This document shows, one piece after another, positions 34,962-64,000 of a DNA stretch of 64,000 bases. Source of the DNA: an uncultured Hyphomicrobiales bacterium (GTDB lineage: Bacteria; Pseudomonadota; Alphaproteobacteria; Rhizobiales; Xanthobacteraceae); the NCBI GenBank assembly GCA_964575175.1, contig CAZNPX010000006.1, forward strand, positions 28,578 through 92,577. The letters are read 5' to 3'. The notes below the pieces were generated by a model. That model had not been told where the DNA came from, searched no databases, and saw nothing but the letters and a program-made list of their open reading frames with translations. Within the stretch, counting starts at the first letter, position 1. Every line of letters starts with the position of its first letter. A program made the position numbers and the translations under genes.

Positions 34962-35639
34962 TTATTTCGCCGCCGCGCCGATGCCGGTGATTTTCAGGCC
35001 CGCATCCGGCACCTTATACTTGCGGTTGATCCAGATCAGCACCGAGGTCAGGCTTTCCGCGACGACGGAATTCGCCAGCGGGCCGGCGTCGACCCCGTTC
35101 AGCCCGGCGTCGCCGGCAAGGCCGATCGCGACTTCCCGCGCATCCTTGTCGTCGCAAGCCACGAGCACGTCGCAGTCGATCTTGTGATCGAGCTCCTTGA
35201 GCTTGTGCGCCGAGACGTTCTGGAAGGCGGAAACCACGCGGGTCTGCTCGCCGAGCAGCTTCTGCACGGCGACGACGCACGAATCCGATTCCGGCAACTG
35301 CACCTGCGAAACCTTCGGCGGCACCAGCGGCACCGTGACGTCGATCAGGATTTTTCCGGCGAGCACGTCCTTCAGCCCTTCGACCGTCGGCTTCTGCGCG
35401 GAAAAGGGAACGGTGAGGACGACGATGTCGGCCGCGCTGACGCCGCTGCGGCTGTCCATGGCCTCGACGTTCTGCTTGCCGGTGAGCGCGTTCAGCGCGT
35501 CCGCGGTGGCCTTGGCCTTGCTCACGTCGCGCGAGCCGATAATGACGCGATGACCTTTCACCGCCCAGCGCGCGCCGAGGCCGCTCCCCTCCGCGCCGGT
35601 TCCGCCGACGATGCAGATCGTTTTCACTTCCACGCTCAC
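34962..35639 (-). CDS. npdG: NADPH-dependent F420 reductase (F420:NADP+ oxidoreductase, NpdG/Fno type)
   Basis: ICIVGGTGAEGSGLGARWAVKGHRVIIGSRD Rossmann N-terminus and overall NpdG/Fno layout. GTG 35639 is preceded by GGAGG inside the fbiC 3' end and lies 1 nt after the fbiC stop. Confidence 0.8.
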   Translation of the reverse strand: MSVEVKTICIVGGTGAEGSGLGARWAVKGHRVIIGSRDVSKAKATADALNALTGKQNVEAMDSRSGVSAADIVVLTVPFSAQKPTVEGLKDVLAGKILIDVTVPLVPPKVSQVQLPESDSCVVAVQKLLGEQTRVVSAFQNVSAHKLKELDHKIDCDVLVACDDKDAREVAIGLAGDAGLNGVDAGPLANSVVAESLTSVLIWINRKYKVPDAGLKITGIGAAAK

Positions 35640-35640
35640 G

Positions 35641-38046
35641 CTAACCTCCAACTTCCATTACGGCTCTTTCCGCAGAGCCTTTGCGTTTTCCGACGAAGGG
35701 ATCGAGCACCAGATCCGTCAGCGCTGCCGCGCCGAAGCTCCTGCCGCGGCGCTCGACGGCGACCTCGCCGTAAAGCGTGGTGCGCTGCGCCGGCGTTCTT
35801 CCGATCGAGGAGACGAGCCGCTCCATGTTCTCGGGGCTCAATTCCTGACCGTGCTGCGTGCCCGCGGCGCGCGAAATGCTTTCGTTCATCAAGGTGCCGC
35901 CGAGATCGTTCGCGCCGCCGTTGAGCAAGCTAGCGGCCCCCTCCGCGCCGACCTTCACCCACGACGCCTGGATGTTTCCGATCAGCGGATTGAAGACGAG
36001 CCTTGCGATCGCGTGCAGCAGGCGCACTTCGCGCCAGGTCGGCCCCTGCCGCGCCTGCCCGCGAAGCGACATCGGCGCTTCCATGTGCACGAAGGGCAGC
36101 GGCACGAATTCGGTGATGCCGCCGGTCCGCTGCTGCAAGTCGCGCAGCGCAAGCAGATGGCGCGCCCAGCTTATCGGGGCTTCCACATGCCCGAACATGA
36201 TCGTCGATGTGGTCGGCAGCCCGCAGCGATGCGCGGCTTCGATGACCGCGAGCCACTCGGCGGCGTCGAGCTTGTCAGGGCAGATTATCTGCCGGATGCC
36301 GTCGTCGAGAATCTCCGCGGCCGTTCCCGGCAGCGATCCCAGACCCTCGTCGCGAAGCATGCCGAGAAAGCGCGCGACCGGAATTCCGAGCGTGGCCGCG
36401 CCCTGCGATATTTCGAGCGGCGAGAAGGCATGGACATGCATCCCCGGCACTTCGTTCTTCACCGCGCGCACCAGATCGATATAGGTCTGGCCGGTGTAAT
36501 GCGGGTTGATGCCGCCCTGCATGCAGACTTCGGTCGCGCCGCGGCCCCATGCCTCGCGCGCGCGCCGCGCCACTTCGCCGAGCGAAATGTCGTAAGGCTT
36601 GCCGCGAAGATGGTCGTGGCTCTTGCCCTTCGAGAACGCGCAGAAGCTGCAGCGGTAGAGGCAGACGTTGGTGTAGTTGATGTTCCGGTTGACGACGTAG
36701 CGGACCATGTCGCCGCTCACGCGACGGCGCAGCTCGTCGGCCGCGGAAACGATCTCGGCGACGCCGGTATCCCGCGCGCCGAACAGCTTCACGATCTCCG
36801 CGTGGGCAAGCCGTTCTCCGGCCTGCGCGCGGTCGAGCAACTTGTCGTAGCTGCCCGGCGCTCCGCCGCTCACCGACGGCGACGGGATCGGTTCCAGCGA
36901 GCCGGGCGACCACGCCTCTTCGCGCGCGAAGCCTTCGCTGTCCGACAATTGCACCAGCTTCGAGAAGGGCTCCGCATCGAACCATTCGCGTTCGAGCGCG
37001 AAACGCGGATAGGCGGCAAGCCGCGGCACGAGCGAGAAGCCGGCCTGCTCCGTCATCGCGCGCAGCTTCGGGATCGCGGGCCACGCGGCTTCGGGATTTA
37101 CGTGATCCACCGTTACCGGGGAGATGCCGCCCCAGTCGTTGATGCCGGCATCGAGCAGGCGCGGATAGTCGGCGTAGCTCAGGTTCGGCGGCACCTGGAT
37201 GTTCATTTCGGCGCCGAAGACGAGGCGCGTGACGGCCGCGGTCCACAACAGATCGTCGAAGCTCGGCTCCTCCGACAGCGCGAGACGGGTGCCGGGCTTG
37301 GCGCGGAAATTCTGGACGATGATTTCCTGGATGTGGCCGTATTGCGCGTGCAGATCGCGCAGCGCGAGCAGCGATTGCACGCGCTCCAGCCGGGTTTCGC
37401 CGATGCCGATGAGAATGCCGCTGGTGAACGGCACCTTCTGCCGCCCGGCCGCGGCGATCATCTCGACACGAACCGCGGGGTCCTTGTCGGGCGAACCGAA
37501 ATGCGCGCCGCCGCGCTCGCACAGCCGCGGCGAAATCGTCTCCAGCATGATGCCTTGCGATACGCTGACGCGCCGCAGCCGCGCGATCTCTTCTTCCTCC
37601 ATCACGCCGGCGTTGACGTGAGGCAACAGCGTCGTGTTGCGCAGGACCAGTTCGCACACCGCCTCGAGATAGGCGTGGGTCGAGGCGTATCCCAAGGCGT
37701 CGAGCGCCTCGCGGGCCGCCGCATAGCGAAGCTCGGGCTTGTCGCCGAGCGTGAAGAGCGCTTCGGTGCAGCCCGCCGCCTCGCCCCTGCGCGCGATCTC
37801 CAGCACTTCATCGGGAGAGAGGTAGGCGCGCTTCAGCCGCTTCGGCGTTTTCGCGAAGGTGCAGTAGCCGCAGGTATCGCGGCACAACTGCGTGAGCGGT
37901 ATGAACACTTTGCGGGAATAGGAAATATTGGTGCCGTGGCCCTCGACCCGGAGCCGCGCCGCGCGCGCAAGCAGCGCCGCCAGCGGAAGGCTCTCGAATT
38001 TCGCCAGCAATTGCTCCGGCGTACAGGCTTCGAATTCCACGCTCAT
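35641..38046 (-). CDS. fbiC: bifunctional FO synthase FbiC (CofG+CofH fusion; 7,8-didemethyl-8-hydroxy-5-deazariboflavin synthase)
   Basis: 801-aa ORF with two radical-SAM motifs (CRDTCGYCTF and CLYRCSFCAF) in tandem CofG-like and CofH-like halves. Confidence 0.93.
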   Translation of the reverse strand: MSVEFEACTPEQLLAKFESLPLAALLARAARLRVEGHGTNISYSRKVFIPLTQLCRDTCGYCTFAKTPKRLKRAYLSPDEVLEIARRGEAAGCTEALFTLGDKPELRYAAAREALDALGYASTHAYLEAVCELVLRNTTLLPHVNAGVMEEEEIARLRRVSVSQGIMLETISPRLCERGGAHFGSPDKDPAVRVEMIAAAGRQKVPFTSGILIGIGETRLERVQSLLALRDLHAQYGHIQEIIVQNFRAKPGTRLALSEEPSFDDLLWTAAVTRLVFGAEMNIQVPPNLSYADYPRLLDAGINDWGGISPVTVDHVNPEAAWPAIPKLRAMTEQAGFSLVPRLAAYPRFALEREWFDAEPFSKLVQLSDSEGFAREEAWSPGSLEPIPSPSVSGGAPGSYDKLLDRAQAGERLAHAEIVKLFGARDTGVAEIVSAADELRRRVSGDMVRYVVNRNINYTNVCLYRCSFCAFSKGKSHDHLRGKPYDISLGEVARRAREAWGRGATEVCMQGGINPHYTGQTYIDLVRAVKNEVPGMHVHAFSPLEISQGAATLGIPVARFLGMLRDEGLGSLPGTAAEILDDGIRQIICPDKLDAAEWLAVIEAAHRCGLPTTSTIMFGHVEAPISWARHLLALRDLQQRTGGITEFVPLPFVHMEAPMSLRGQARQGPTWREVRLLHAIARLVFNPLIGNIQASWVKVGAEGAASLLNGGANDLGGTLMNESISRAAGTQHGQELSPENMERLVSSIGRTPAQRTTLYGEVAVERRGRSFGAAALTDLVLDPFVGKRKGSAERAVMEVGG

Positions 38047-38128
38047 ACCATCAATTCCTGCCGGGCATTCCGCTCATGTCGGGCCGCGCGACACGCGCCG
38101 CATTGCTGCCCTGCGGCGGCCGCAGGAC

Positions 38129-38767
38129 TCACTCGACACGATCGCTCGGTCCCGTCGCCACGTCCGCGACATTGCGCATCGAATAGATCTCTCCAAGGCC
38201 GGCGTAATTGGGGCCGCCGATCCGGCACAACGGGCGGAGCTGCCGCGTGTCGATCTTGTTGTTCTCGCACAAGCCGTCGCGAACGTGAAACATCAATACT
38301 TCGCCGACCAGGAATTTCGAGCCGGTCTCGCCGAATGCGATGTCGTGCCGCAGCGCGCATTCCATACTGATCGGGGCCGCCGCAAGCCGCGGGACCGGGA
38401 CGCGATCGCTCGGCGCGGTTTCCAGATCGAGCAGCGTGGTTTCGCTGACGTCGTAGGGATGCGCGACCGCGCTGAGGTGAACCTTTTCGACCATGGTTTC
38501 GTCGCCGATGTTCACCACGAAACTCTTCCCTTCGAGAATATTCCGGGCGGTGTCCTTCTGCTCGCCGCTGCGAAGCCCGACATTGATCCCGATCATCGGC
38601 GGCTTCGACGAGACGAAGGTGAAGCAACTGAACGGAGCCAGATTGACGATTCCGGCAGCCGACAGCGTCGTCACCCAGGCGATCGGGCGCGGCACCACCA
38701 TTCCCGTCAGCAGCCGGTAAATGTCCTGGGGCGGCATCGGGGCCGGATTGATTTTCATTGCTCGCAT
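38129..38767 (-). CDS. flavin reductase-like (FMN-binding split-barrel) domain protein
   Basis: 212-aa ORF with LLTGMVVPRPIAWVTTLSAAGIVNLAPFSCFTFVSSKPPMIGINV, typical of the flavin-reductase-like domain. Sits directly upstream of fbiC. Confidence 0.8.
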   Translation of the reverse strand: MRAMKINPAPMPPQDIYRLLTGMVVPRPIAWVTTLSAAGIVNLAPFSCFTFVSSKPPMIGINVGLRSGEQKDTARNILEGKSFVVNIGDETMVEKVHLSAVAHPYDVSETTLLDLETAPSDRVPVPRLAAAPISMECALRHDIAFGETGSKFLVGEVLMFHVRDGLCENNKIDTRQLRPLCRIGGPNYAGLGEIYSMRNVADVATGPSDRVE

Positions 38768-38803: not shown

Positions 38804-39607
38804 TCAGGCCACCGACATCTTTTGCCGATCGGAATTCCCGAAAGGCGGCGCCGGCAGCGCGCCCTGCTTGCTCGAAATGATTCCGGCGCAACGCTCGGTG
38901 ACGATCTGCATGTGCTTGTAGAAGTTCTTGTCGTGGCCCTGCTTGTGAATGGCGGAGCTGAGCGCGGCGACGACATCGCCGGAGGCGTCCCGGATCGGGC
39001 AGCCGACGGCATAGATATCGACGAGATTCTCCTCGTCGGAGATCGAGTATCCGCGCTTCAGGACATTCCGCAGGTCGGCCACCAGCGAGCGGGTGTTGAT
39101 GATGCTGTAGGGGGTCAGGCGATTGAGCGAAAGCCGCGGCAACAGCTTCTGCAACTCGGCATCGTTCATCGCCGCGAGCAGGACCTTGCCGGCGGCGGTG
39201 GTATGCAGCTGCCCGGTCACGCCCGTGTTGATGCGCAGCACATACGGCTGCGCGCCCTGGATTGCGTACAGGTACAGCATGACGTTGTCGGAGCGCACGC
39301 AAAGATAGACGTTCAGCCCCTCGCTTTCGGCGAGCTGGTGCAGGTCGTCGTAGCAGGCGTTGTAGAGCGGGTTCGAGCGCGTGTATTTCTGGCCGATCTC
39401 GAAGGTGGTCGGCCCGACGCGGTATCGGCGGGTGGCCGGGTTCTGCTCGAGAAAACCGTCCTCGGCCAATGTCAGCAGCAGGCGCGACGCCTTGCTCTTA
39501 TCGAGCGAAAGCAGGCGGGCGACTTCGCGAACACCAAGCTCGGGACCATGCTCGGCAATGGTCTTCAGAATTTTCAGCCCGTGAGATAGCGACTGATTGA
39601 TTGCCAT
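38804..39607 (-). CDS. IclR family transcriptional regulator
   Basis: N-terminal wHTH (LKILKTIAEHGPELGVREVARLLSLDKSKASRLLLTL) plus an IclR effector domain. Confidence 0.85.
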   Translation of the reverse strand: MAINQSLSHGLKILKTIAEHGPELGVREVARLLSLDKSKASRLLLTLAEDGFLEQNPATRRYRVGPTTFEIGQKYTRSNPLYNACYDDLHQLAESEGLNVYLCVRSDNVMLYLYAIQGAQPYVLRINTGVTGQLHTTAAGKVLLAAMNDAELQKLLPRLSLNRLTPYSIINTRSLVADLRNVLKRGYSISDEENLVDIYAVGCPIRDASGDVVAALSSAIHKQGHDKNFYKHMQIVTERCAGIISSKQGALPAPPFGNSDRQKMSVA

Positions 39608-39616: not shown

Positions 39617-40399
39617 TTAGTGCCCCCCGGCAGCGCTGGCAGGTGTTGTTTTCTCCCAATACACGACTTTTCGATAGATCGCGCGAACGATGAAGTTGGC
39701 CGTGACGCCGATCAGCGACAGCGTGAAAACCGCGGTGAACATCGCGCCCACGTCGAAGTTCATGGACGACGACTGGATCAGGTGGCCGAGGCCCTGCCTC
39801 GCCGCCAGAAATTCGCCGACCACGGTACCGATCAGTCCCAGCACGACGCTGATCTGGAGACCGGCGAAGATCGAGTTGGCGGCGCTCGGCAGCTTCACGT
39901 CCCAGAAAATGAGGCGGCGCGGCGCCGAGAAGGCGCGATAGAGATCAACCAGATCGGGATTGGCCGAGCGCAGGCCCGTCATCGTGTTGATGAACATCGG
40001 GAAGAAGCAGATCAGCGCCACCAGAACGACCTTGAAGGTCATGCCGAAGCCGAACCAGACCAGCAGCAAAGGCGCGAGCGCCACCTTGGGCATCGACTGG
40101 AAGCCGACGACATAGGGAAAGACGATGCGCTCGGCCAGCACGAACTCCGCGACCAGCGCGCCGAGCAGGAACGCGACGATGCAGCCGAGGAAATATCCGA
40201 GCACCATCTGCGTCAGCGTGATTCCGATATGCGGGAAAATCAGGCCGCTCGAGTAGAGCACCCACGCCGACTTCGCGACCTCGATCGGCCCCGGCAGCAG
40301 GTAACTCGGAACGCCGAAGTATTTCGTGCCGAAGTGCCAGATCAGCAGGAAGCAGACAATGGAGAGGGTGGAAATCGAATATGCCTTGAGCTTGTTCAT
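39617..40399 (-). CDS. ABC transporter permease (NitT/TauT type)
   Basis: 260-aa polytopic ORF, paralogous by eye to the permease at 10146..10913. Confidence 0.85.
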   Translation of the reverse strand: MNKLKAYSISTLSIVCFLLIWHFGTKYFGVPSYLLPGPIEVAKSAWVLYSSGLIFPHIGITLTQMVLGYFLGCIVAFLLGALVAEFVLAERIVFPYVVGFQSMPKVALAPLLLVWFGFGMTFKVVLVALICFFPMFINTMTGLRSANPDLVDLYRAFSAPRRLIFWDVKLPSAANSIFAGLQISVVLGLIGTVVGEFLAARQGLGHLIQSSSMNFDVGAMFTAVFTLSLIGVTANFIVRAIYRKVVYWEKTTPASAAGGH

Positions 40400-40408
40400 C
40401 CCCTGCCC

Positions 40409-41188
40409 TCAATGCATCGCGGAGCTGGCGCCGAGCATCTGCCGGAGCTTGTTGGCGATCGCGCCGAATTCGGGGCTTGCCAGCGTTTCCAGCGTGCGCG
40501 GCCTCGGGATGTTCACGGGCACTTCCAGGATCTTCGTTCCCGGCCGTCCCGACAGTACGACGATCTTGTCCGCGAGGAACACCGCTTCGGGAATCGAATG
40601 CGTGATGAAGATCACCGTCTTGCGGGTGTTGAGCCAGATCGATTGCAGCTCGATGGTCATGCGCTCGCGCGTCAGCGCATCCAGCGCCGCGAAGGGCTCG
40701 TCCATCAGCAGCACCGCCGGATCGTGAATGAGCCCGCGGGCGATGCCCGCGCGCTGCTGCATGCCGCCCGAAAGCTCGCGCGGAAGATGATCGGCGAACT
40801 TGCTCAAGCCGACCAGCTCCAGCAGCTCGCGCGCCCTCGGCACATATTTCGCCGTGGACTGCCCGAGCGCGCGGATCGGCACCAGCACGTTCTCGATCAC
40901 CGTCTTCCATGGCAGCAGCGTGGGCTGCTGGAAGACGATGCCGACATCCGAGCGCGGGCCGACGATGGGCGACGCCGAGAGCTTGGCGACGCCGGACGCC
41001 ACCGGCATCAGGCCGCTCACCACCCGCAGCAGGGTCGATTTTCCGCAGCCGGACGAGCCGATCACGGCGACGAACTCGCCCTTGGCGACGGTGAGATCGA
41101 GGTTTTGCAGGGCCATCAGCGGTCCCTGCGTCGTCTGGTACACGACGGAGACACCGCTGATGTCGAGCGTAGGCACTTCGTTTCGCAT
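40409..41188 (-). CDS. ABC transporter ATP-binding protein
   Basis: Walker A GSSGCGKST, signature LSGGMQQR, Walker B LLLMDEPFAALD. Confidence 0.9.
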   Translation of the reverse strand: MRNEVPTLDISGVSVVYQTTQGPLMALQNLDLTVAKGEFVAVIGSSGCGKSTLLRVVSGLMPVASGVAKLSASPIVGPRSDVGIVFQQPTLLPWKTVIENVLVPIRALGQSTAKYVPRARELLELVGLSKFADHLPRELSGGMQQRAGIARGLIHDPAVLLMDEPFAALDALTRERMTIELQSIWLNTRKTVIFITHSIPEAVFLADKIVVLSGRPGTKILEVPVNIPRPRTLETLASPEFGAIANKLRQMLGASSAMH

Positions 41189-41220
41189 GAGGCTGTTACC
41201 CGGCTCTACAGAAGGCCAAC

Positions 41221-42312
41221 TTACTTATATGCCTTCGCCTTCTGCACGACTTCGTCGCGGCTGAAGCGGTTATACTCGGCCACGAACTGGTTAGTGTAGA
41301 GCGTGTCGAGCGGGATATTCGCGTTCTTTTCGATCAGCCCGCCGAGCTTCAGCGCATCGACGATCAGCTTCCACTCGTTCGCGGTGAATTCGCCGATATT
41401 CTTGTCGTTGCGGCCGAACAGCAGGTTCTCGATCCGCGGCTTCAGAATCGTCATTTCCCGCTTGATGTTTTCGGCTTCGGTGCCGGTGGTCGGGCGCATG
41501 GTCGGATATTCCGCCCAGAACGAGCGAATGCAGCCCTCGAGATTCGCCTGGCAGGCGACGGCGCCCTTCGACATCGCGCGTCCGAACTTCGCGATCAGGT
41601 CCGGCCGGCTCTTGATCATCTCATTGGTGTAGGGGAAGCCGTGGCTCGGGAGGCTCTGATATTCCTTCGGGAACGGGACCAGCCGGATCTTGGTGCCCGA
41701 CAGGCCGAGCGCGACGTGCATCGTGTCCCACAGGTTCAGCGCATCGACCTGCTTGCGGCGGAGCGCCTCGAAGGCAGGCACGCCGGAACCGACGCCCATC
41801 TTCTGCACGCTGTTCCAGTCGACGCCCTGGTTCTGGGCCATCGCCTGCGTCATCGCGATATTGCCGGAGGTCAGCGAGACGAAGCCGACGGTCTTGCCGT
41901 TCAGGTCGCCGAAAGCCTTGATCGGGCTTTCGTCGAGCACCGCAAGCTCCCAGATCGAGCGCGGCAGGTAATTATATGTGAACTGGATCGGAAAGTTCGG
42001 CTTTCCTTCCTGCCGCGAGATCGGCAGCGGCTCCAGGCTCGCGTAGGCGGTGTGGATCGTTCCCTTCAGGAGCTGGGGAATGATCACGCCGGAGCCGGTG
42101 AGCACGATCAGCTCGACGTCGAGTTTTTCCTCGTCGAAGAAGCCGAGCGCCTTGGCGAAGGTGAAATTCGCCACGCCCGAATTGATGGCCGACGGCCACG
42201 CAAAGACGAACTTGTCTTTTGCCTTCGCCTCGGGAGCGGCAATCACGGCCGCAACAGCCAGCGTCAGCATGGCTACCCGGCGGCTCAGACCGCCAAACAT
42301 CGGAAATTTCAT
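41221..42312 (-). CDS. ABC transporter substrate-binding protein (NMT1-like)
   Basis: 363-aa ORF with a signal peptide (...LAVAAVIAAPEAKA). First gene of the transporter-IclR-flavin reductase-fbiC-npdG string. Confidence 0.8.
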   Translation of the reverse strand: MKFPMFGGLSRRVAMLTLAVAAVIAAPEAKAKDKFVFAWPSAINSGVANFTFAKALGFFDEEKLDVELIVLTGSGVIIPQLLKGTIHTAYASLEPLPISRQEGKPNFPIQFTYNYLPRSIWELAVLDESPIKAFGDLNGKTVGFVSLTSGNIAMTQAMAQNQGVDWNSVQKMGVGSGVPAFEALRRKQVDALNLWDTMHVALGLSGTKIRLVPFPKEYQSLPSHGFPYTNEMIKSRPDLIAKFGRAMSKGAVACQANLEGCIRSFWAEYPTMRPTTGTEAENIKREMTILKPRIENLLFGRNDKNIGEFTANEWKLIVDALKLGGLIEKNANIPLDTLYTNQFVAEYNRFSRDEVVQKAKAYK

Positions 42313-49107: not shown

Positions 49108-49112
49108 CACCG

Positions 49113-56826: not shown

Positions 56827-57420
56827 TCACCCGAACGCACGCTTCCATTTCAGATAGTCGTCCGGTTCATCAATATCGAACTCGAGCGCTTCGTTGCGAA
56901 GGATCGTGGGATTGCGGTTCTGCGCGAGCGCGTTATCGACGTGAACCCGAAAACTATTCTCGCCGTAGGCGAAGCGGAAGTCCGCGAACGCGCCGTTGCG
57001 CAGCAGGAGCACATTGGTGCCGGCCTGCCTGCGATCCGGCACGATAACGACGTCACCCGCGGCGGCGGTTACGCTCGCTAGGGATTTTTCCGTCGCAAGG
57101 GGAATGTCGATCGGCAGGATCAGGACCTCGGCAGGGAGGCCTGATTTCGCAAGCTCGGCCCGCGCGCCCGAGAGGGCGGCGTTCAGGTCGGGCCACGCCT
57201 CGGCGAACGTCTCGATGCCCTCGCCGGCCGCGATCTCGCGCGCTTTTTCATCCGCACTGACGAGCCTGACGTTCGCCGCTCCCGCGATCCCGCGCGCGAG
57301 CTTCAGCGTGTCGGCGAGGAAGCGCTCGCAAAGCGCCTGCCGTTCCGCCTGCGTGAGCAATCCCGCCAGCCTGGATTTTCCGGAGGCCAGCGACTTGCAG
57401 GGAACGAGGATCACGGGCAT
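56827..57420 (-). CDS. cofC: 2-phospho-L-lactate (or PEP/3-PG) guanylyltransferase CofC/FbiD
   Basis: Start reset to ATG 57420 (MPVILVPCKSLASGKSRL, the usual CofC N-terminus). ~197 aa. 5 nt after the cofD stop. Confidence 0.85.
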   Translation of the reverse strand: MPVILVPCKSLASGKSRLAGLLTQAERQALCERFLADTLKLARGIAGAANVRLVSADEKAREIAAGEGIETFAEAWPDLNAALSGARAELAKSGLPAEVLILPIDIPLATEKSLASVTAAAGDVVIVPDRRQAGTNVLLLRNGAFADFRFAYGENSFRVHVDNALAQNRNPTILRNEALEFDIDEPDDYLKWKRAFG

Positions 57421-57425: not shown

Positions 57426-58385
57426 TCAACGGCTCCGCAACGCGGAGGCGAATTCCAGGCACTGCTGCGCGAGGGCCACCCGCTCGGCGTCCGTTTTCAT
57501 GATGGTGTTCTCGATCCGCACCTGCATGCCGAGCGCTTCGATCTCGTGCTTCAGCGCCGCGTCGCTGGTGTCGATGACGAAGCCGTCGACAAGCCCGCGA
57601 TAATGTTGCGCCACGGTTCTGGCGGAGGGCTCATGGCCGAGCTCGCCCATGATCTTCGCAGCCGGGCCCTTGATCGCCATGCCGGCGACGATGGGAGACA
57701 CCGCGATCACCGGCGCGCCGCAACTCCGCAGCCAGTCCCGAAACTCCGGAAGCTCGAGCATGGGATCGATGCTCAGATAAGGATTGGAAGGGCACAACAC
57801 GATGGCCGCGGGCGGCGCGACCGATCTCCTGCGGCGCAGCGCTTCGCTGATCGACGCTTCCCTTGCGCCGCGGAATTCCAGCCGCCTGACGGCCGGCGCG
57901 CAGGCAAGGCGGACGAAGTATTCCTGAAACGCGATTTCCGCGTCCGCGGTGTGAACGATGGTCCGCACCTTATCGTCGGACATCGGCAATATCTCGGCGC
58001 GCACGCCGAACGCGCGGCACAACTCGCGGGTCACCTGCGTGAGCGTGGCGCCTTCCGCAAGCCGGCGCGTGCGCAGCACATGGGTCGCGAGATCCCGATC
58101 GCCGAGCTTGAACCAGACCGGGCCGCCGAGCCGCGAAAGCTGATCCATGAAGCTCCAGCTTTCGCCTTCCAGCCCCCAGCCCTGCGCGCGATTGGCGACG
58201 CCGCCGAGCGTGTACATCACCGTGTCGAGATCGGGAGAGACATGAAGCCCGAGATGCTCGAAATCGTCGGCGGTGTTGACGGCGACGACGAGATTTTCTT
58301 CCCTTATATGCTGGAGGCCGGCGGCGAGCTTGGCCCCGCCCACGCCCCCGGCAATCGCGAGCACCCAGCCACCGGCAGCGCTCAC
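57426..58385 (-). CDS. cofD: 2-phospho-L-lactate transferase CofD/FbiA
   Basis: 319-aa ORF with LAIAGGVGGAKLAAGL...VNTADDFEHLGLHVSPDLDTVMYTL, characteristic of CofD. Confidence 0.9.
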   Translation of the reverse strand: MSAAGGWVLAIAGGVGGAKLAAGLQHIREENLVVAVNTADDFEHLGLHVSPDLDTVMYTLGGVANRAQGWGLEGESWSFMDQLSRLGGPVWFKLGDRDLATHVLRTRRLAEGATLTQVTRELCRAFGVRAEILPMSDDKVRTIVHTADAEIAFQEYFVRLACAPAVRRLEFRGAREASISEALRRRRSVAPPAAIVLCPSNPYLSIDPMLELPEFRDWLRSCGAPVIAVSPIVAGMAIKGPAAKIMGELGHEPSARTVAQHYRGLVDGFVIDTSDAALKHEIEALGMQVRIENTIMKTDAERVALAQQCLEFASALRSR

Positions 58386-59137
58386 CGGAACAGGTCCTTG
58401 TTTTTCGGACGCAGCAGATCCCGGCTGTCGCCGTTTCCGGTGAGGATCGCCTTTCCTCTCACATGCACGATCGGCCAGCCCTCGTCGGCCTGTCCCATCA
58501 CGACGGACGCGGCGGCGGCGATTTCATCGCCCCGGCCGACCTCGGTGGTTTCCAGCTTGCGGCCGAGCAGATCCGGCTTGCCGCGCAGATCCAGCAACGT
58601 CGCGACGCCGCTGCCGCCGATCAGCGTGCCGATGGTGCCGTTTCGCCACGCGCGGCCGATGCTGTCGATAATCATGACGCCGATCTCGTGGCCCGTCTGC
58701 GCCTCGATGTCGGCGCGGATGCGCCGCGCCGAAACGTCCGGCGCGAGCGGCAGCAGCAATGCATGGTCTTCGCCTTCCACGTTGGAGCGGTCGATGCCCG
58801 CATTCGCGAGCACGAGCCCCAGCCGGTGCTCGACGATGATCACCCCCGGCAGCGCGCGGAGGACGTCTTTCGATTCCGACAGGATAAGCTCGACCACGCG
58901 CGGATCTTTGTGCGCGACCGCGGCGAGCTCGATTGCGGCGGCCGAGGGCTTCACCGTCGAGAGTTCGACGAGCCGCCCTTCGGCTTTCGAGACGACCTTC
59001 TGGGCATAGACGAACAGATCGCCCGCATCGACGGCGATGCCCGACGCGGCGGCCGCATCCAGCGTTATCCGCGCGAGATCGTCCCCGGCATGCACCATGG
59101 GCACCCCGCGCAGGGCTGTCAGCGTGAGACTGCTCAT
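58382..59137 (-). CDS. cofE: coenzyme F420-0:L-glutamate ligase CofE (single-domain, no FbiB nitroreductase domain)
   Basis: 251-aa ORF (...VVSKAEGR...LANAGIDRSNV...). ATGA overlap with cofD. The length leaves no room for a C-terminal nitroreductase-like domain. Confidence 0.9.
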   Translation of the reverse strand: MSSLTLTALRGVPMVHAGDDLARITLDAAAASGIAVDAGDLFVYAQKVVSKAEGRLVELSTVKPSAAAIELAAVAHKDPRVVELILSESKDVLRALPGVIIVEHRLGLVLANAGIDRSNVEGEDHALLLPLAPDVSARRIRADIEAQTGHEIGVMIIDSIGRAWRNGTIGTLIGGSGVATLLDLRGKPDLLGRKLETTEVGRGDEIAAAASVVMGQADEGWPIVHVRGKAILTGNGDSRDLLRPKNKDLFR

Positions 59138-59211
59138 TCGTGTCGTTCGATCCCAATCGAATCGGCTTCGAAGCCCTTCTTACCCCGCGGCAGAAACTCC
59201 GTCAGTCTCCG

Positions 59212-60216
59212 TCACCCTACCTTCGCCATGACGTCGCGCGCAAACCACTCGATCTGATCGTTCATCTCGCTCACGCTGTCCGCGGGGAACATCAGCGCGC
59301 TGCAATGATCGATCCCGATGGCCTTTAGCTTCGCAACTTTCTCGATGATGACGTCGGGCGAGCCGACGAGGTTTGCGATCACCTGATGGCTCAGGTCGCG
59401 GCCGGTATAGGCGAGCGACACGCGATGCGCGACCAGCCCGCTTTCCATGTAGCGCTTTTCCGCGGCTTCCATGGTCTTGTCGATGGTGACGGAGAACTGC
59501 GGCGCGATCTCGATGTCGGCCGGGTTTCTGCCGAGCTCGGCCGCGCGCGTCTTCAGGTTCTTGATTCTTTCCTCCAGCTCCGTGAGCGGACGCCAGCCCG
59601 GCAGCCAGCCCTGGCCGTAGCGCGCGGCGCGCTCGATCGCCTCGAGGTTGTGGCCGCCGATATAAAGCGGGAACGGCTGCGCCCTGCTCTTCGGAAACAT
59701 CTCGACGTCCTTGAAGGAGTAATATTTTCCCTCGAAGCTCGCGCTCTTTTCCTTGAACAGCATTTCGAGCGACGTCAGCGCCTCGTCCATCATGTCGCCG
59801 CGGCGGGCCTTCGCGGCCCGCGAGCCGCCCCATGCCAGAAACTCCTCGCGATAGGCGCCGAGTCCGACGGCCATGATGAAGCGGCCGTTCGACATCTGGT
59901 CGAGCGTGATGGCCTGCTTCGCGAGATAGACGGGATCGCGCATCGGCAAGACGCAAAGCGCCGTTCCCAGTTTCAGCTTCGTCGTGACGGCGCCGATTGC
60001 CGCAAGCACGACCAGCGGCTCGTAGAAATTCGGCGGCGTGTTCGGGAACAGATCCCGCACATAATCCTGGGTCGTGATGTGGTCGTTGCCCCAGACCGAA
60101 TCGTAGCCGAGCCGCTCGCAGAGCTTGCCCTGCTCGATGAAATCTTCCGGGCCCGCGAACGGAATCGGATACATGACGCCTTCGAACCCCGTCGAAAGAC
60201 ATACGCTGAATTTCAT
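59212..60216 (-). CDS. LLM-class oxidoreductase, probably F420-dependent
   Basis: 334-aa LLM TIM-barrel pattern (LGYDSVWGNDHI..., MAVGLGAYREEF...). Sits 74 nt upstream of cofE. Confidence 0.8.
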   Translation of the reverse strand: MKFSVCLSTGFEGVMYPIPFAGPEDFIEQGKLCERLGYDSVWGNDHITTQDYVRDLFPNTPPNFYEPLVVLAAIGAVTTKLKLGTALCVLPMRDPVYLAKQAITLDQMSNGRFIMAVGLGAYREEFLAWGGSRAAKARRGDMMDEALTSLEMLFKEKSASFEGKYYSFKDVEMFPKSRAQPFPLYIGGHNLEAIERAARYGQGWLPGWRPLTELEERIKNLKTRAAELGRNPADIEIAPQFSVTIDKTMEAAEKRYMESGLVAHRVSLAYTGRDLSHQVIANLVGSPDVIIEKVAKLKAIGIDHCSALMFPADSVSEMNDQIEWFARDVMAKVG

Positions 60217-60218
60217 TT

Positions 60219-61178
60219 CTATCTCCCGTGAATTTTTAGAATGCTGGAAATCTGCTCGGACGCGCGAACACCCGCGATGACGACTTCGTCGAGGCCCGCG
60301 CGCTGGTACGTCTCGAAGCGCTCGCGCAACTGCGCGGCGGTGCCGCTGACGGCGTGGCGGCGAACGATGTCGTCGGTAATCAGCGCTTCCGCCGCGGCCC
60401 AGTCGTTCGCGAGCACCGCGCCGTTCAGGGCCGCCTGGTCGAGCCGGCTTCCCGCCGCATCCAGATTTGCCCTGTGGTGCGGCCCGCGCAGCAGAATCGC
60501 GAGCGCGCGGCGCAGCCTGTCGTTCGCGACCGTTTCGCTCGCGTCGATCGAGGAATAAACGAGCCCGTGCGTGCGCACCGGCCTGCCCTTCGCGCCGCGC
60601 CGGACATGATCCAGCGTCTGCTCGACGAAGGGCACCGACGCACCCGCGCTGATGAGCACGCCATCCGCTTCCGCGCCGGCAAGCTCGAGCATGCCCGGGC
60701 CCGACGCCGCGAGCACGATCGGGACGTTGCGCGCCCCGGTCACGAGCGCGCGCGAGGAAATGCTGAAGTGATCGCCTTCGTAGCGGACGGTTTCTCCGGC
60801 GAGCAGCGCCCGCGTGATCTTCAAGGCCTCGCGCATCAGCTTCAGCGGCTTCGAGCCGTCGATCGCGAGCGCATTGAGATCGGCCGGGGCGCCGACGCCC
60901 AGACAGAGCGTCACGCGGCCGGGAAACATTTCATCGAGCGTGGCGACGCTCATCGCCGCCTGCACCGGATGGATGGTCAGCGGGCTCACCGCCATGAGCG
61001 CGACATTCACCCGTTCGGTGCGGGCCAGCGAAAGCGCCGCCAGCGATACCGGATCGCGCAGGAACAGATGGTTCGCGGCCCACAAGGCGCGCGCGCCGCC
61101 CGCTTCGGCAAGCGCCAGCTTCTCCAGAAACTGCTGCGGCGTATCGCGGCCGTCGGTCGATACCGAGAGATCAAACAA
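60219..61178 (-). CDS. LLM-class oxidoreductase, probably F420-dependent
   Basis: 319-aa LLM pattern (ARALWAANHLFLRDP..., TLCLGVGAP...). 2 nt from the next LLM gene; 8-nt overlap with the upstream 2Fe-2S gene. Confidence 0.75.
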   Translation of the reverse strand: MFDLSVSTDGRDTPQQFLEKLALAEAGGARALWAANHLFLRDPVSLAALSLARTERVNVALMAVSPLTIHPVQAAMSVATLDEMFPGRVTLCLGVGAPADLNALAIDGSKPLKLMREALKITRALLAGETVRYEGDHFSISSRALVTGARNVPIVLAASGPGMLELAGAEADGVLISAGASVPFVEQTLDHVRRGAKGRPVRTHGLVYSSIDASETVANDRLRRALAILLRGPHHRANLDAAGSRLDQAALNGAVLANDWAAAEALITDDIVRRHAVSGTAAQLRERFETYQRAGLDEVVIAGVRASEQISSILKIHGR

Positions 61179-61632
61179 GGCTTTTCACCGCTTCGAGAAT
61201 TTTGATGTAGCCGGTGCAGCGGCAGATATTGCCGCGGAGAAAGTGGCGGATTTCCTCCTCGGTCGCGGACGGCTTCAGTTCGAGCAGCGCCGTGGTCGCG
61301 AGCACCATGCCCGAGGTGCAGAAGCCGCACTGCATCGCCGCATGATCGACGAACGCCTGCTGCACCCGGCTCAGCTTTCCATCCGCCGCGAGCCCCTCGA
61401 TGGTCGTCACCGACTTGCCGTCGGCATCGACGGCGAGCGTCGTGCAACTGCTGACCGGAAGCCGGTCGACGAGCACCGTGCAGGCGCCGCAGACCTCGAC
61501 GTCGCAGGATCGCTTGGTGCCCTTCAGCTTGCAGCGGTCGCGCAGCACGTCGACCAGAAGCTCGGAGGAATCGACCGTCAATTCCCGCGGCGACCCGTTC
61601 ACGATCAAGGAGATGGTTGTCGGATCACGCAT
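61171..61632 (-). CDS. (2Fe-2S)-binding small subunit (module C)
   Basis: Motifs CDVEVCGACTV and CGFCTSGM...CRCTGY. Confidence 0.9.
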   Translation of the reverse strand: MRDPTTISLIVNGSPRELTVDSSELLVDVLRDRCKLKGTKRSCDVEVCGACTVLVDRLPVSSCTTLAVDADGKSVTTIEGLAADGKLSRVQQAFVDHAAMQCGFCTSGMVLATTALLELKPSATEEEIRHFLRGNICRCTGYIKILEAVKSLV

Positions 61633-62506
61633 GGCGCGCGTCCCCGGCAGGAGGGACGCCGCATGCCGCCATCAACGTCCGCTGGATCAGCACCGCGGCG
61701 AGATGCTGCTTGTAGTCGGCGCTGCCGTGAAGATCGCTCGTCGCGGAAATCTTCGATGCGAATTGCCGCGCCGCCGCAGGCAGGACGTCGGGCAGCGCCG
61801 GCACCGGCACGCCCGCAAGCGCATCCTCGACTTCCTTTGCGTGAATCGGATGCTCGCCGATGGCGCCGAGCCAGATGCGGTACTCGTTGCCGCTTCCGCC
61901 GCCAACGAAGCCCGCGGACACGCCGACCGCGGGGCGCTCGAGGTGGCCGGTTTTCCGGTAGCAGAAACTTTCGCCCGCCTTCGTCACCGGAATCCTGATT
62001 TCCGAAATCAGCTCGTTATCCTCGCGTATCGTGGTGAATTCGCCGACGATGAACTCGGCCACCGGGACCGAGCGCTTCGACTGCGGGGAAACCAACGTGA
62101 CCGATGCGCCCATCGCGGCAAGAAGCGACGGCGGATCGGAATGGGCTTCGGCAAATCCGAGATTCCCCGCGAGCGTGCCGGCGGCGCGGACGCGAATGTT
62201 CGCGATGCCGTCGCTCAGCGCCGCATAAGCGGGAACGCGGCTCCTGACGAACTCGCTGCTCGCGAGCTCATGATGGGTGACGAGCGCGCCAATGACGAGT
62301 TCTTCGCCCTCCACGCGCAGGCCCCTGAATTCCTCGATCCGCTTCAGGTCGATCAAATGCTCGTAGCGGAGCACCCGCGCCTTCAGCGCGAGCAGCAACT
62401 CGGTGCCGCCCGCATAAACGGCCGCGTCGTCCCCGTGCTTCGAGAGCAACTCGAAAACCGCGGGAAGACCGCCGGGCCGGTGATGCGTGAACGGTGCGAG
62501 GAACAC
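61625..62506 (-). CDS. FAD-binding subunit (CoxM-like) of molybdo-hydroxylase (module C)
   Basis: 293-aa ORF with YAGGTELLLALK and uninterrupted AGTLAGNLGFAEAHSDPPSLLAAMGA. Confidence 0.85.
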   Translation of the reverse strand: MFLAPFTHHRPGGLPAVFELLSKHGDDAAVYAGGTELLLALKARVLRYEHLIDLKRIEEFRGLRVEGEELVIGALVTHHELASSEFVRSRVPAYAALSDGIANIRVRAAGTLAGNLGFAEAHSDPPSLLAAMGASVTLVSPQSKRSVPVAEFIVGEFTTIREDNELISEIRIPVTKAGESFCYRKTGHLERPAVGVSAGFVGGGSGNEYRIWLGAIGEHPIHAKEVEDALAGVPVPALPDVLPAAARQFASKISATSDLHGSADYKQHLAAVLIQRTLMAACGVPPAGDARHA

Positions 62507-62509: not shown

Positions 62510-62962
62510 CTACACCTGCGCCAGCTGTTCTTTGATACGGCGCTCGAACTCCACGAAGTTTTCTTCCGCCTTCTTCTTGATGACGGAATAACCGAGCGAG
62601 GCCAGTCGGCCCGCGACGTTGAGGCTCGCGTTCACGGCAAACCTGCTCGCGCCGGATTCCACCGGATCGACGGTGACGTGCAGCGCGACCGTGAGCGTGG
62701 TGCCGGTGAACTTGTCCTTCCCGGTGGCGGCAGCCTTGACGAAGGAGGGCTCCTCGAAGCTTTCGACCGCAATCTGCGCCGGGACTTCCAGCTTGAAGGG
62801 GCCGATCTTCTGCTTCATCACCGCGCTGTACGATTTGAGCTTCTCCTGCACCTCGATGCTTTCGCAGCCGGGAATGCAGGCGGCCATGCGCTCGATGTCG
62901 ATCATCATGGTCCAGATGCGCTCGGGCGCCGTAGGCAGCACGGTTTCAAAGCTGAAATCCAT
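62510..62962 (-). CDS. CoxG/SRPBCC family protein
   Basis: 150-aa ORF with a CoxG-like pattern (IERMAACIPGCESIE..., KIGPFKLE...). Embedded between the Mo and FAD subunit genes. Confidence 0.8.
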   Translation of the reverse strand: MDFSFETVLPTAPERIWTMMIDIERMAACIPGCESIEVQEKLKSYSAVMKQKIGPFKLEVPAQIAVESFEEPSFVKAAATGKDKFTGTTLTVALHVTVDPVESGASRFAVNASLNVAGRLASLGYSVIKKKAEENFVEFERRIKEQLAQV

Positions 62963-62964
62963 CG

Positions 62965-64000
62965 TCAGCCTCCTTTCTTTTCGCGGATGGCGCGCCAGAC
63001 GCGCTCCGGCGTGAGCGGCAGCTCGCGGATTCGCGCGCCGTAGCCCGCGGCGAGCGCATTGGCGATTGCGGGCGCGACCGGAAGGATCGCGCCCTCGCCC
63101 ATTCCGCGCATGCCGCCGGGGCCGGGGCCGGTGCCGCTTTCGATCAGAATGGTGGTGAAATTATCGGGCACTTCATCGATGGTCGGCACGTGATAGTCGA
63201 TCATGGTCGCGTTGATCGGCTGGCCGTCCTGATAAACCAGTTCTTCGCTCAGCGTGTGGCCGAGGCCCATGATCGACGCGCCTTCGTCCTGCCCTTCGGC
63301 GGCGGCGCGATTGAGCGCGCGGCCGACGTCGGCCACGCTCACGTAATGACGAACCCTGATTTCGCCGGTCTCTTCATCGACGGCGATGGCGCAGCGGCCC
63401 GCCGCCGTTTCCCAGAACAGCGGCGCCTGCGCGAGACGGCCGCCATTCGAATGCGGCGTCACGCGCCCGATGCTGACGATCTCGCCGCTGTCGATGCCGT
63501 AATAGGCATGCAGCAATTCGCTGAAGGTTTTTCTTTCGTTGCCGATGGCGATGCCGCCCTCGCACAGTTGCACCGCTTCAGGATCGACCGACAGCACCAC
63601 CGCCGCGATTTCGGCGACCTGCCTGCGGATGTCATTGGCGGCGTCCTCGATCGCAAGGCCCATCATCAGCGACGAGCGGCTTGCGCCCGTGCCCCAGTCG
63701 TAGGGCGCAATCGCGGTATCGGGCGTGAGCACCTCGATCGCCTCGATGGGCTGGTTGAGCTGCTCGGATGCAAGCGTGCGCAGCACTTCGCGCAGGCCCT
63801 GCCCGATCTCCACGCTGTTCGACACCACGGCGACGGAGCCGTCGATCTTCAGGCGCATCATGACCGACGCGACCGGCATGATCCCCGGATCGGAAATTCC
63901 GAGCGCGGTGCCCTGATGCGTCGCGGAGCCCTGATCCAGCGCGGTCAGGCGGTCCATCTCCTGCGAGGCGAGGTCCATCGCCTCGCCCATTTCGACATCG
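62965..64000 (-). CDS. xanthine-dehydrogenase-family molybdopterin-binding large subunit, C-terminal part (module C; 5' end right of window)
   Basis: Frame open to the window edge. C-terminal Mo-subunit motifs (GMRGMGEGAILPVAPAIANALAAGYGARIRELPLTPERV). Confidence 0.9.
   Translation of the reverse strand, partial: DVEMGEAMDLASQEMDRLTALDQGSATHQGTALGISDPGIMPVASVMMRLKIDGSVAVVSNSVEIGQGLREVLRTLASEQLNQPIEAIEVLTPDTAIAPYDWGTGASRSSLMMGLAIEDAANDIRRQVAEIAAVVLSVDPEAVQLCEGGIAIGNERKTFSELLHAYYGIDSGEIVSIGRVTPHSNGGRLAQAPLFWETAAGRCAIAVDEETGEIRVRHYVSVADVGRALNRAAAEGQDEGASIMGLGHTLSEELVYQDGQPINATMIDYHVPTIDEVPDNFTTILIESGTGPGPGGMRGMGEGAILPVAPAIANALAAGYGARIRELPLTPERVWRAIREKKGG

Follow-up and report, generated by a model that had tools for sequence, protein, structure and literature searches.

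On contig CAZNPX010000006.1 of an uncultured Hyphomicrobiales bacterium from the family Xanthobacteraceae (assembly GCA_964575175.1), the genes for the biosynthesis of coenzyme F420 lie interleaved with those of three molybdoenzymes of the xanthine dehydrogenase (XDH) family and three luciferase-like (LLM) oxidoreductases. The stretch of DNA analysed, referred to as the window, comprises 64,000 nucleotides (positions 28,578 to 92,577 of the contig), and coordinates are counted from its first letter. Third-position G+C frame analysis, the list of open reading frames (ORFs) and Pfam and NCBIfam scans resolved positions 34962 to 64000 into an unbroken chain of 28 genes on the minus strand, here called the island. 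The single strand and the gene order up to the right edge had been read from the letters alone in an earlier description (the original prediction) and were borne out. The tight spacing described there was also found, with 18 of the 27 junctions measuring at most 10 nt or overlapping. Junction distances were checked against gene calls for the same DNA in L081, a Logan contig of the same organism that reaches past the right edge of the window (other loci are likewise given by L numbers). Wide gaps lie between LLM2 and cofE (74 nt), cofC and IclR1 (42 nt), IclR1 and RidA (121 nt), RidA and tctC (107 nt), tctA and DUF917 (261 nt), the Mo::FAD fusion and a substrate-binding protein (SBP) gene (174 nt), the SBP gene and its ATPase (32 nt), IclR2 and FlavRed (36 nt), and FlavRed and fbiC (82 nt).

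The G+C content is even over the whole window (62–68%), and at this level raw ORF lists are crowded with false frames. The second LLM gene was placed at 59212–60216, where an overlapping ORF (59180–60202) has no Pfam match. The DUF917 gene starts at 52142 rather than at 52358, and the third 2Fe-2S gene covers 45861–46373, with the fusion of a molybdopterin (Mo) and a flavin adenine dinucleotide (FAD) domain beginning at 45864. The rightmost Mo gene is truncated by the window edge and encodes 761 amino acids (aa) when complete in L081. Beyond the window, 5' of this gene, the same-strand cluster continues with a DadA-type D-amino-acid dehydrogenase (445 bits, cut-off 383), an M24 hydrolase resembling prolidase and ectoine hydrolase, and a threonine-synthase-like pyridoxal phosphate (PLP) enzyme of the PALP family (L081:181-4230).

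A complete set for F420 biosynthesis together with the reductase Fno had been claimed for the island, and all five proteins indeed surpass their NCBIfam equivalog cut-offs. These are CofE, a short form of the F420-0:gamma-glutamyl ligase (58382–59137; TIGR01916, 248.6 bits, cut-off 180.65), CofD, a 2-phospho-L-lactate transferase (57426–58385; TIGR01819, 297.2 bits, cut-off 257.45), the guanylyltransferase CofC (56827–57420, with the start taken from the L081 call; TIGR03552, 133.2 bits, cut-off 105), the FO synthase FbiC, a fusion of CofG and CofH (35641–38046; NF006687, 1119 bits, cut-off 1018), and the NADPH-dependent F420 reductase Fno/NpdG (34962–35651; TIGR01915, 193.1 bits, cut-off 149.8). 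The genes cofE-cofD-cofC sit between LLM2 and the regulator gene IclR1, and FlavRed-fbiC-fno come after the second regulator gene, IclR2. Palindromes were seen in two of the gaps here, GGCTTCGAAGCC and TTCGATTGGGATCGAA in front of cofE (59138–59211) and CCTGCGGCCGCCGCAGG immediately 3' of the FlavRed stop codon (38047–38128); they might be operators, attenuators or REP-like elements.

CofE comprises 251 aa and is without the FbiB nitroreductase domain, so that a separate dehydro-F420 reductase would be required if phosphoenolpyruvate (PEP) were the in vivo substrate of CofC. Gram-negative CofC enzymes favour 2-phospholactate in vitro, with the in vivo substrate unresolved (PMC8764529). The neighbour of fbiC, FlavRed (38129–38767; PF01613), carries a Flavin_Reduct domain and resembles the flavin mononucleotide (FMN) reductase NbaA. 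Its PDB matches are 3bpk (148 bits) and the 2-nitrobenzoate nitroreductase NbaA (4z85, 119 bits). In the original prediction, which called it a flavin reductase, the closeness to a substrate reductase had been missed. FlavRed repeatedly adjoins F420 genes or LLM-XDH modules in relatives, and as an NbaA-like protein adjoining fbiC it is a candidate dehydro-F420-0 reductase. A role as the general proteobacterial dehydro-F420 reductase was rejected, as a homologue was detected in only two of 80 CofD loci and also occurs inside LLM3-XDH modules with no cof genes in view.

LLM1 (60219–61178; PF00296) is a Mer-like member of the luciferase family. Its best NCBIfam match is Mer (138.9 bits, cut-off 276), its top 11 matches are all F420 families, and its best PDB match is the Mer structure 8qq8 (E 2.7e-27). 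LLM3 (49975–51009), which is paired with the second XDH, is likewise Mer-like (F420_mer, 192.4 bits, cut-off 348.7), with F420 families in its top 15 NCBIfam matches and Mer 8qpm as its best PDB match (E 1e-47). The best FMN families reach 55 bits for LLM1 and 45 bits for LLM3, and the F420 families score 2.5 to 4 times as high as any FMN family. The best PDB relatives of both proteins are Mer, Fgd and Adf. From these matches, LLM1 and LLM3 are inferred to use F420. LLM2 (59212–60216) is the only one of the three to surpass the cut-off of a curated F420 class (TIGR03619, 195.9 bits, cut-off 166.9). It is also the best-conserved protein of the island, with 75–94% identity across Xanthobacteraceae, Rhodopseudomonas and Ramlibacter. 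In length, the three LLMs (319–344 aa) correspond to solved F420 enzymes (321–356 aa), whereas most of the matched FMN monooxygenases have about 370–460 aa. The F420 side of the family, on which the original prediction had placed the LLMs, is supported by LLM2 surpassing TIGR03619 and by the Mer-like character of LLM1 and LLM3, with the reservation that the latter two stay under their cut-offs and that the structural matches of LLM2 are ambiguous.

The three molybdoenzymes each consist of a Mo subunit or domain with Hammerhead and MoCoBD_1/2 domains, a subunit with two [2Fe-2S] clusters and a FAD subunit or domain, as is typical of the XDH family. XDH1 is composed of Mo1, of which the C-terminal 344 of 761 aa lie in the window (62965–64000; MoCoBD_2, 3.5e-59), a CoxG-family accessory protein (62510–62962; PF06240, 3.3e-20), FAD1 (61625–62506; FAD_binding_5 and CO_deh_flav_C) and FeS1 (61171–61632; Fer2_2 and Fer2, eight conserved Cys). 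XDH2 (46370–49970; Pfam) comprises FAD2 (49113–49970), FeS2 (48631–49110) and Mo2 (46370–48634), and XDH3 (42487–46373) comprises FeS3 (45861–46373) and the Mo::FAD fusion (42487–45864). All three Mo subunits contain a GGGFGGK motif and the glutamate of a G-x-G-E motif (GMGEG in Mo1, GVGEP within GVGEPP in Mo2, AAGEP in Mo3), which we take to be catalytic residues as in bovine XDH. They are distant paralogues with 33–36% identity.

The best NCBIfam match of each Mo subunit is HcrA, the alpha subunit of 4-hydroxybenzoyl-CoA reductase, with 485 bits for Mo1, 548 for Mo2 and 544 for Mo3, about half the equivalog cut-off of 994.55, which none of the three reaches. HcrA (1rm6_A) is also the top PDB match of Mo2 (385 bits) and of the XDH3 Mo domain (379 bits), with runners-up at 270 bits or less. 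The CoxL equivalog is far from being reached (275–297 bits against 991), and CoxG is the sole feature in common with aerobic CO dehydrogenase. The FAD domain of the fusion (42487–43470) harbours an insertion of about 40 residues with eight Cys, CQEKRCWFFRSATPCYRFSGPACPCYAVLGDNRHHSIMGAGRCAAPC, which aligns to the [4Fe-4S] loop of HcrB (1rm6_B), PaoB and 5y6q_B. It is nearly unchanged among orthologues with 62–82% identity, its eight Cys are invariant in five orthologues, and it is missing from FAD1 and FAD2. With an HcrB-type [4Fe-4S] loop, reductive dehydroxylation by XDH3 would be possible, but the same loop in the oxidative PaoB and in 5y6q_B means that it is no proof of a reductive function. 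No AMP-binding or CoA-ligase domain, and with it no aryl-CoA ligase or CoA-thioester context, was found in any island gene. As the closest match of every Mo subunit, 4-hydroxybenzoyl-CoA reductase, works reductively, the island enzymes may either hydroxylate or dehydroxylate. Of the Mo-dependent hydroxylation step put forward originally, the presence of XDH-family enzymes stands, whereas the direction may also be the reverse.

Uptake and further conversion are represented by several genes. A tripartite carboxylate importer is encoded by tctC-tctB-tctA with overlapping junctions (52404–55308; PF03401, PF07331 and PF01970), and an ATP-binding cassette (ABC) importer by an NMT1-type SBP gene (41221–42312), an ATPase gene (40409–41188) and a permease gene (39617–40399), together at 39617–42312 (Pfam). 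Homologues of the SBP with about 55% identity (Pararoseomonas, L171) were considered as a clue to the substrate and discarded, as they lie in a different gene context, and no riboswitch that could name a ligand was found in an Rfam scan. The product of the DUF917 gene (51009–52142; PF06032 and PF20906) is a putative cyclic-amide hydrolase of hydantoinase-like type. The domain is now named S-Me-THD_N/C in Pfam, its only PDB relative is the uncharacterised 2o3i, and almost no literature on it was found, apart from a preprint that deems it hydantoinase-like. A RidA/YjgF-family protein (55416–55880; PF14588, 1.6e-27) and two IclR-family regulators, IclR1 at the 3' end of the unit from M24 to cofC (56002–56784; HTH_IclR and IclR_C) and IclR2 (38804–39607; Pfam), complete the set. 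Ring opening and deamination by DUF917 and RidA, as originally proposed, can be kept in the scheme, but the upstream M24 and PLP enzymes, which had been missed, are better candidates for opening the ring and for elimination.

Consensus scans detected promoter-like sites in three wide gaps. No convincing terminator was found by such scans inside the island, and none before 34686, where a strong bidirectional intrinsic terminator (34658–34686; a 13-bp stem followed by a T-run) closes it. Upstream of DUF917, a promoter-like TTGACT-18-AATGAT with TGAGAC and TGAGAT boxes (52147–52214, minus strand) is a candidate IclR2 operator, and upstream of the SBP gene TTGACA-17-AATAGT is accompanied by two TGAGAC boxes (42338–42392, minus strand). 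TGAGAC is rarer than expected in the window (seven copies against 20.9 expected), and four of the seven lie just downstream of these two promoter-like sites. The boxes are placed identically in relatives at 80–86% identity and are degenerate in more distant ones; those upstream of DUF917 are retained at the same position in L082 and L168. A second motif, the palindrome GTTCC-N7-GGAAC, lies upstream of RidA (55887–55903) and is a candidate IclR1 operator. It occurs once in the window (0.05 expected), and L081 has a second copy, with similarity extending over about 31 nt, upstream of the start codon of M24 at a distance of 60 nt. Among relatives, both positions are occupied in L173, the position upstream of M24 in L168 and that upstream of RidA in L002.

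We infer that IclR1 binds the palindrome and IclR2 the TGAGAC boxes. A single transcription unit was not upheld in view of the promoter-like sites and the two distinct operator motifs. Instead, the island seems to be divided into two regulons of IclR type, served by at least four promoters. The palindrome regulon would consist of one unit with M24, the PLP enzyme, XDH1 (Mo1-CoxG-FAD1-FeS1), LLM1, LLM2, cofE, cofD, cofC and IclR1, and a second unit with RidA and tctCBA. The TGAGAC regulon would consist of one unit with DUF917, LLM3, XDH2 and XDH3, and another with the NMT1 SBP, the ABC genes, IclR2, FlavRed, fbiC and fno.

The conservation of this neighbourhood in relatives, which had been named as a check on the original prediction, was confirmed and includes a cultured strain. 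In a CofD-based scan with one genome per species, from which 80 genome loci were sampled for layout, no relative above 70% identity was found, which places the source species outside the GTDB representatives; an exact look-up of FbiC had no match. Most of the 80 loci show the usual proteobacterial layout, a compact fno-cofE-cofD-cofC-fbiC operon, and the arrangement of the island is derived, yet recurrent. The whole set is present over about 40 kb in the Xanthobacteraceae metagenome-assembled genome (MAG) GCA_019635585.1, with 65–94% identity and two blocks swapped. In this MAG, block A (DUF917 to FlavRed) precedes block B (M24 to tctA), whereas the order in the window is B, A and then fbiC-fno. 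The complete genome CP075369.1 also has block A before block B, and in L003 and the JGI contig L170 the F420 genes follow directly after block A (after FlavRed). In Bradyrhizobium valentinum and B. retamae, DUF917-LLM3-FAD-FeS-Mo adjoins fno-cofE-cofD-cofC-fbiC, with the junction after Mo2. In Ferrovibrio and three metagenome contigs, the order IclR-DUF917-hydantoinase A-HapK-LLM-FAD-FeS-Mo-ThiS-like is followed by cofE-cofD-cofC.

The cultured Rhodopseudomonas palustris HaA2 (CP000250.1, 4988035-5009042) carries one same-strand cluster at 42–86% identity in the order M24-PALP-tctCBA-Mo-CoxG-FAD-FeS-LLM1-LLM2-FlavRed-fno-cofE-cofD-IclR, with ABD09097.1 as the LLM2 homologue; cofC and fbiC are absent from the 21-kb stretch viewed, and no paper on F420 in this strain was found. 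In Ramlibacter tataouinensis (CP116009.1, 2881013-2902023), the order is M24-FlavRed-RibA-TctC-LLM2-fbiC-fno-cofE-cofD-cofC-pntAB. This F420 operon includes a GTP cyclohydrolase II (precursor supply) and a pntAA-pntAB-pntB transhydrogenase (NADPH for Fno). In Lautropia and an alphaproteobacterial MAG (L005), homologues of LLM1, LLM2, PALP and M24 lie beside cof genes. Genes for M24 and PALP are found again next to F420 genes in HaA2, Ramlibacter, Lautropia and L005. The set with the closest tie to the F420 genes is LLM2, M24, FlavRed and TctC.

The pairing of LLM and XDH genes was also followed in a metagenome sample of 80 LLM3-like genes. A gene for an XDH FAD subunit was immediately next in 25 of the 51 loci with room for it, and in 11 of 19 a Mo subunit came no more than 4 kb later. 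Pairs of a Mer-like LLM and an XDH are hence widespread, and their physical fusion with F420 biosynthesis genes is lineage-specific. Further sets were seen in several relatives: an opposite-strand Mo::FAD fusion about 50% identical to XDH3 occurs with a CMD-family gene in L173 (17826-21005) and with an FeS subunit and an LLM in L003 (12347-17184), and L001 and L088 each have one more LLM-FAD-FeS-Mo set. Multiple copies of LLM-XDH pairs seem to be a recurrent feature of this group. In the distant modules of Ferrovibrio and Reyranellaceae (L083:14695-14928 and 9639-9968; L087:14631-14879), a ThiS-like small gene stands right after the Mo subunit, and the modules also have between one and three genes of the HapK family, an ABC importer of the Opp type and a short-chain dehydrogenase/reductase (SDR). 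None of these (ThiS-like, HapK-family, Opp-type importer, SDR) is part of such a module in the window.

Taken together, the island might encode a catabolic route that depends on F420H2 and acts on an N-heterocyclic or aromatic carboxylate, with its own F420 supply and under two IclR-type regulons, a reading to which we give slightly better than an even chance. Substrate would be taken up by the tripartite (TctCBA) and the ABC importers. The three HcrA-like molybdoenzymes may then add oxygen functions to the ring or remove them reductively. Fno would charge F420 with hydride from NADPH, and F420H2 may serve the Mer-like LLM1 and LLM3 together with LLM2 of the TIGR03619 family as reductant for C=C or C=N bonds in the activated ring. 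The cyclic amide or amidine so formed could be opened by DUF917 and the M24 enzyme, and the threonine-synthase-like PLP enzyme, RidA and DadA would process amino-acid-like products. Conjectural in this scheme are the cofactor use of the LLMs, the direction in which the Mo enzymes work, the sequence of steps and the class of substrate, whereas the gene identities, the architecture, the sharing of motifs and the conservation were observed.

Several lines of evidence speak for this route. The genes for F420 biosynthesis and recycling surpass their curated cut-offs, as LLM2 does that of TIGR03619, and LLM1 and LLM3 score higher on F420 than on FMN families. Independent lineages differ in the junction by which F420 genes and catabolic modules are connected, the whole island recurs in GCA_019635585.1, and 25 of 51 metagenome loci pair an LLM3-like gene with an XDH FAD subunit. 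With the conserved shared operators, cofEDC and fbiC-fno come to lie at the 3' end of catabolic units under regulation. Importers accompanied by IclR regulators are a common sight in catabolic loci, and the published reductive urate pathway follows the same logic. The F420-dependent catabolic pathway of the original prediction is partly supported, by gene identities, conservation and the family placement of the LLMs; a single transcription unit is not supported, and the assignments of cofactor and direction are less sure.

Several observations weigh against such a route. LLM1 and LLM3 fall under every curated family cut-off. The top PDB matches of LLM2, by sequence and by fold, are the FMN monooxygenases 3rao, SfnG and LuxA, narrowly ahead of F420 enzymes. 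In a Foldseek search with an AlphaFold 2 model (pLDDT 77), SfnG and LuxA were matched at E 1e-19, followed by Mer, Fgd, FGD2 and Adf with E values between 1e-17 and 1e-16; both groups had TM scores of 0.7–0.8, and this near-tie in sequence and fold leaves the cofactor of LLM2 unsettled by similarity. The Flavin_Reduct protein and RidA would also suit an FMN-dependent two-component scheme. In Ramlibacter, LLM2, M24, FlavRed and TctC are tied to the F420 genes without any XDH, and the XDHs may therefore be accessory. F420 genes were found within 10 kb in only two of 15 well-flanked metagenome LLM3-like loci, and the Reyranellaceae locus L087 contains an LLM-XDH module with no cof genes nearby; Reyranella genomes do carry cofD. 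Finally, F420 production has been recorded for Oligotropha carboxidovorans as well as for Paracoccus denitrificans, the two Alphaproteobacteria tested, but only in traces (PMC8498797).

An unlikely explanation, if the most serious of the rivals, is that the genes are neighbours without a shared pathway. The F420-linked set would then be LLM2, M24, FlavRed and TctC, and the modules with the XDHs, LLM1 and LLM3 would be independent hydroxylases linked to NAD+ or a quinone. The four linked genes could even serve the maturation of F420, for example by dehydro-F420 reduction through FlavRed, for which the lack of a nitroreductase domain in CofE would leave room if PEP is the in vivo substrate. The XDH-free operon of Ramlibacter, in which M24, FlavRed, RibA, TctC and LLM2 are followed by fbiC-fno-cofEDC and pnt, fits such a separation, as do the far better conservation of LLM2 (75–94%) than of the XDH parts, the distant LLM3-XDH modules, mostly without adjacent F420 genes, and the several promoters of the island. 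However, three lineages each show a different junction between XDH-LLM modules and cof genes, and XDH1 lies between PALP/tct and LLM1-LLM2 in a tight unit whose last genes are cofEDC. An operator motif is common to the DUF917-XDH unit and to the one with fbiC-fno at its end, and FlavRed, with homologues detected in just two of 80 CofD loci, is no general F420 maturation factor.

Less probable still, and in our view doubtful, is that the LLMs, or at least LLM2, are FMNH2-dependent two-component monooxygenases fed by FlavRed, with the F420 genes as passengers. The model for this is the Rut pathway, which consists of the LLM RutA, the reductase RutF and the RidA-family protein RutC. A Flavin_Reduct gene is present in the island and adjoins LLM2 in HaA2, a RidA-family gene is present as well, and the closest structures to LLM2 are those of FMN enzymes (3rao, SfnG, LuxA). 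Against this, the RutA equivalog scores 44.6 bits for LLM2 (cut-off 498.3) and is absent from the match lists of LLM1 and LLM3, LLM2 surpasses the cut-off of the F420 class TIGR03619, LLM1 and LLM3 are Mer-like with FMN families at 55 bits or less, and the lengths of the LLMs match those of solved F420 enzymes. The closest characterised relative of FlavRed is the substrate reductase NbaA, and the persistent linkage to F420 genes would be left unexplained. Very improbable is the synthesis of a secondary metabolite with F420H2-dependent tailoring as known in Streptomyces: F420-dependent LLMs do act in actinomycete antibiotic biosynthesis (PMC8498797), but the island has no non-ribosomal peptide synthetase, polyketide synthase, ribosomally synthesised peptide or exporter genes, and such a role is unlikely because of the absence of scaffold-building genes and the presence of two binding-protein-dependent importers, IclR regulators, RidA, DadA and the threonine-synthase-type PLP enzyme.

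A bolder and rather improbable reading would make F420 the dedicated redox partner of the XDH-family molybdoenzymes. Their FAD (or FAD/[4Fe-4S]) modules would exchange hydride with F420, and the adjacent Mer-like LLMs would share the same pool. If true, this would form a closed low-potential F420 loop that couples ring hydroxylation or dehydroxylation to ring reduction, an aerobic counterpart of the ferredoxin-driven 4-hydroxybenzoyl-CoA reductase, and would be the first physiological role of F420 in Proteobacteria. A well-studied enzyme family would gain a new electron partner, and low-potential hydride chemistry would be added to aerobic N-heterocycle degradation in soil.

The surroundings of the island were also inspected. 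Between fno and the terminator, a hydrophobic ORF of 35 aa, MPLEAIAVLVFVTLLFLVFMGGLYWAERQTRQFRS, with a GGAGA site was noted (34733–34840, minus strand), and L002 has an ORF with 60% identity to it some 7 kb downstream of cofD. Past the terminator, the left flank (27757–34603) resembles an oxygen-response region with FixLJ/FixK/HemN-like genes: a response regulator (34148–34603, plus strand), a PAS histidine kinase (31870–33471, plus strand), a Crp/FNR regulator (31145–31849, minus strand), a CBS/BON protein (30447–31442, minus strand), HemN (29037–30428, minus strand) and a DAO-family oxidoreductase (27757–29265, minus strand). Further left, at 9373–13255, a second, unrelated NMT1-type ABC transporter (ATPase, permease and divergent SBP) stands beside a DHDPS-family gene and is surrounded by genes for an acyl-CoA dehydrogenase, an SDR, a CoA transferase, DUF993 and GFO/IDH/MocA proteins. 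No tRNA was found in the window, and the window genes that were scanned include neither an integrase nor a transposase; with the even G+C content, no sign of a recent transfer of the island was found. A known plasmid island was rejected as well, since a megablast of 25 kb against the PLSDB plasmids gave short fragments only.

In the island, whose gene set is conserved and regulated, the supply of F420, its recycling and enzymes that are candidate consumers of F420H2 stand beside molybdenum enzymes and importers. A 2021 review stated that no F420-dependent enzyme had been examined in bacteria outside Actinobacteria and listed the reason for F420 synthesis in Proteobacteria as open (PMC8498797). 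In a full-text literature search, no description of F420 genes linked to XDH-family clusters in Proteobacteria was found, which is not proof of absence. What seems to be new here, as far as can be read from sequence, is the combination of actinobacterial-style F420-dependent catabolism with XDH-based ring degradation in a phylum where the role of F420 is open. As the same core occurs in the cultured R. palustris HaA2 and Ramlibacter tataouinensis, the role of F420 in Proteobacteria becomes experimentally approachable.

Compared with known systems, the F420 genes of the island are the same five as in other proteobacterial F420 operons, including the short CofE and the fused FbiC. Those operons are compact in most of the loci sampled, whereas the island splits fbiC-fno from cofE-cofD-cofC and places each at the 3' end of a regulated unit with XDH and LLM genes. 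For LLM1 and LLM3, Mer comes first both among families and among solved structures, yet their scores are far under the equivalog cut-offs (139 against 276 and 192 against 348.7). Unlike Mer, both lie in a catabolic context, and the window holds no genes of the tetrahydromethanopterin pathway.

Among solved structures, HcrABC of Thauera aromatica (PDB 1rm6) comes closest to Mo2 and to the XDH3 Mo domain, and XDH3 shares the HcrB loop. In contrast to HcrABC, the island has no CoA ligase, XDH1 and XDH2 are without the [4Fe-4S] loop, and the scores are 485–548 against the cut-off of 994.55. Degradation of nicotinate via 1,4,5,6-tetrahydro-6-oxonicotinate resembles the proposed route in its sequence of Mo-dependent hydroxylation, ring reduction and hydrolytic ring opening. 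This pathway employs an Hnr-type 6-hydroxynicotinate reductase and an enamidase, and neither was among the Pfam and NCBIfam matches of the island genes. Nicotinate itself was graded an unlikely substrate, as Azorhizobium and Bradyrhizobium degrade it via a separate E. barkeri-type cluster, which is conserved in Azorhizobium and Bradyrhizobiaceae (PMC3511419).

A further likeness exists to the actinobacterial npd pathway: an NADPH:F420 reductase feeds ring-reducing LLMs within a catabolic cluster, and the Fno of the island matches the npdG equivalog model. In that pathway, picrate and 2,4-dinitrophenol are converted by NpdG (Fno) and the LLM-family hydride transferases NpdC and NpdI. The npd cluster is without molybdoenzymes, and its host phylum and substrate class differ from those of the island.

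In E. coli and C. difficile, the reductive uric acid pathway comprises XdhD-YgfM, YgfK/UacX, SsnA, HyuA, YgeW/UacY, as well as YgeY and YgeX (PMC12507026). In it, the reduction of urate falls to an XDH homologue and the dearomatisation of the ring to a flavoenzyme, and amidohydrolases, a peptidase and a PLP lyase finish the degradation (PMC12507026). In Chloroflexota urate clusters, the ring reductase is replaced by a putative F420-dependent LLM (PMC12507026). SsnA/HyuA amidohydrolases, a carbamoyltransferase and an M20 peptidase were not found by Pfam in the island or in L081; in their place, the island has DUF917, the M24 enzyme and the threonine-synthase-like enzyme. It also differs from the urate pathway in its three XDHs, three LLMs and embedded F420 biosynthesis genes, and in its aerobic host group. 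By analogy only, the two would correspond in having an enzyme of the XDH family, a reductase for the ring, hydrolases for cyclic amides, a peptidase and an enzyme of the PALP family, and the reductive uric acid pathway may in this sense be regarded as the closest functional precedent found.

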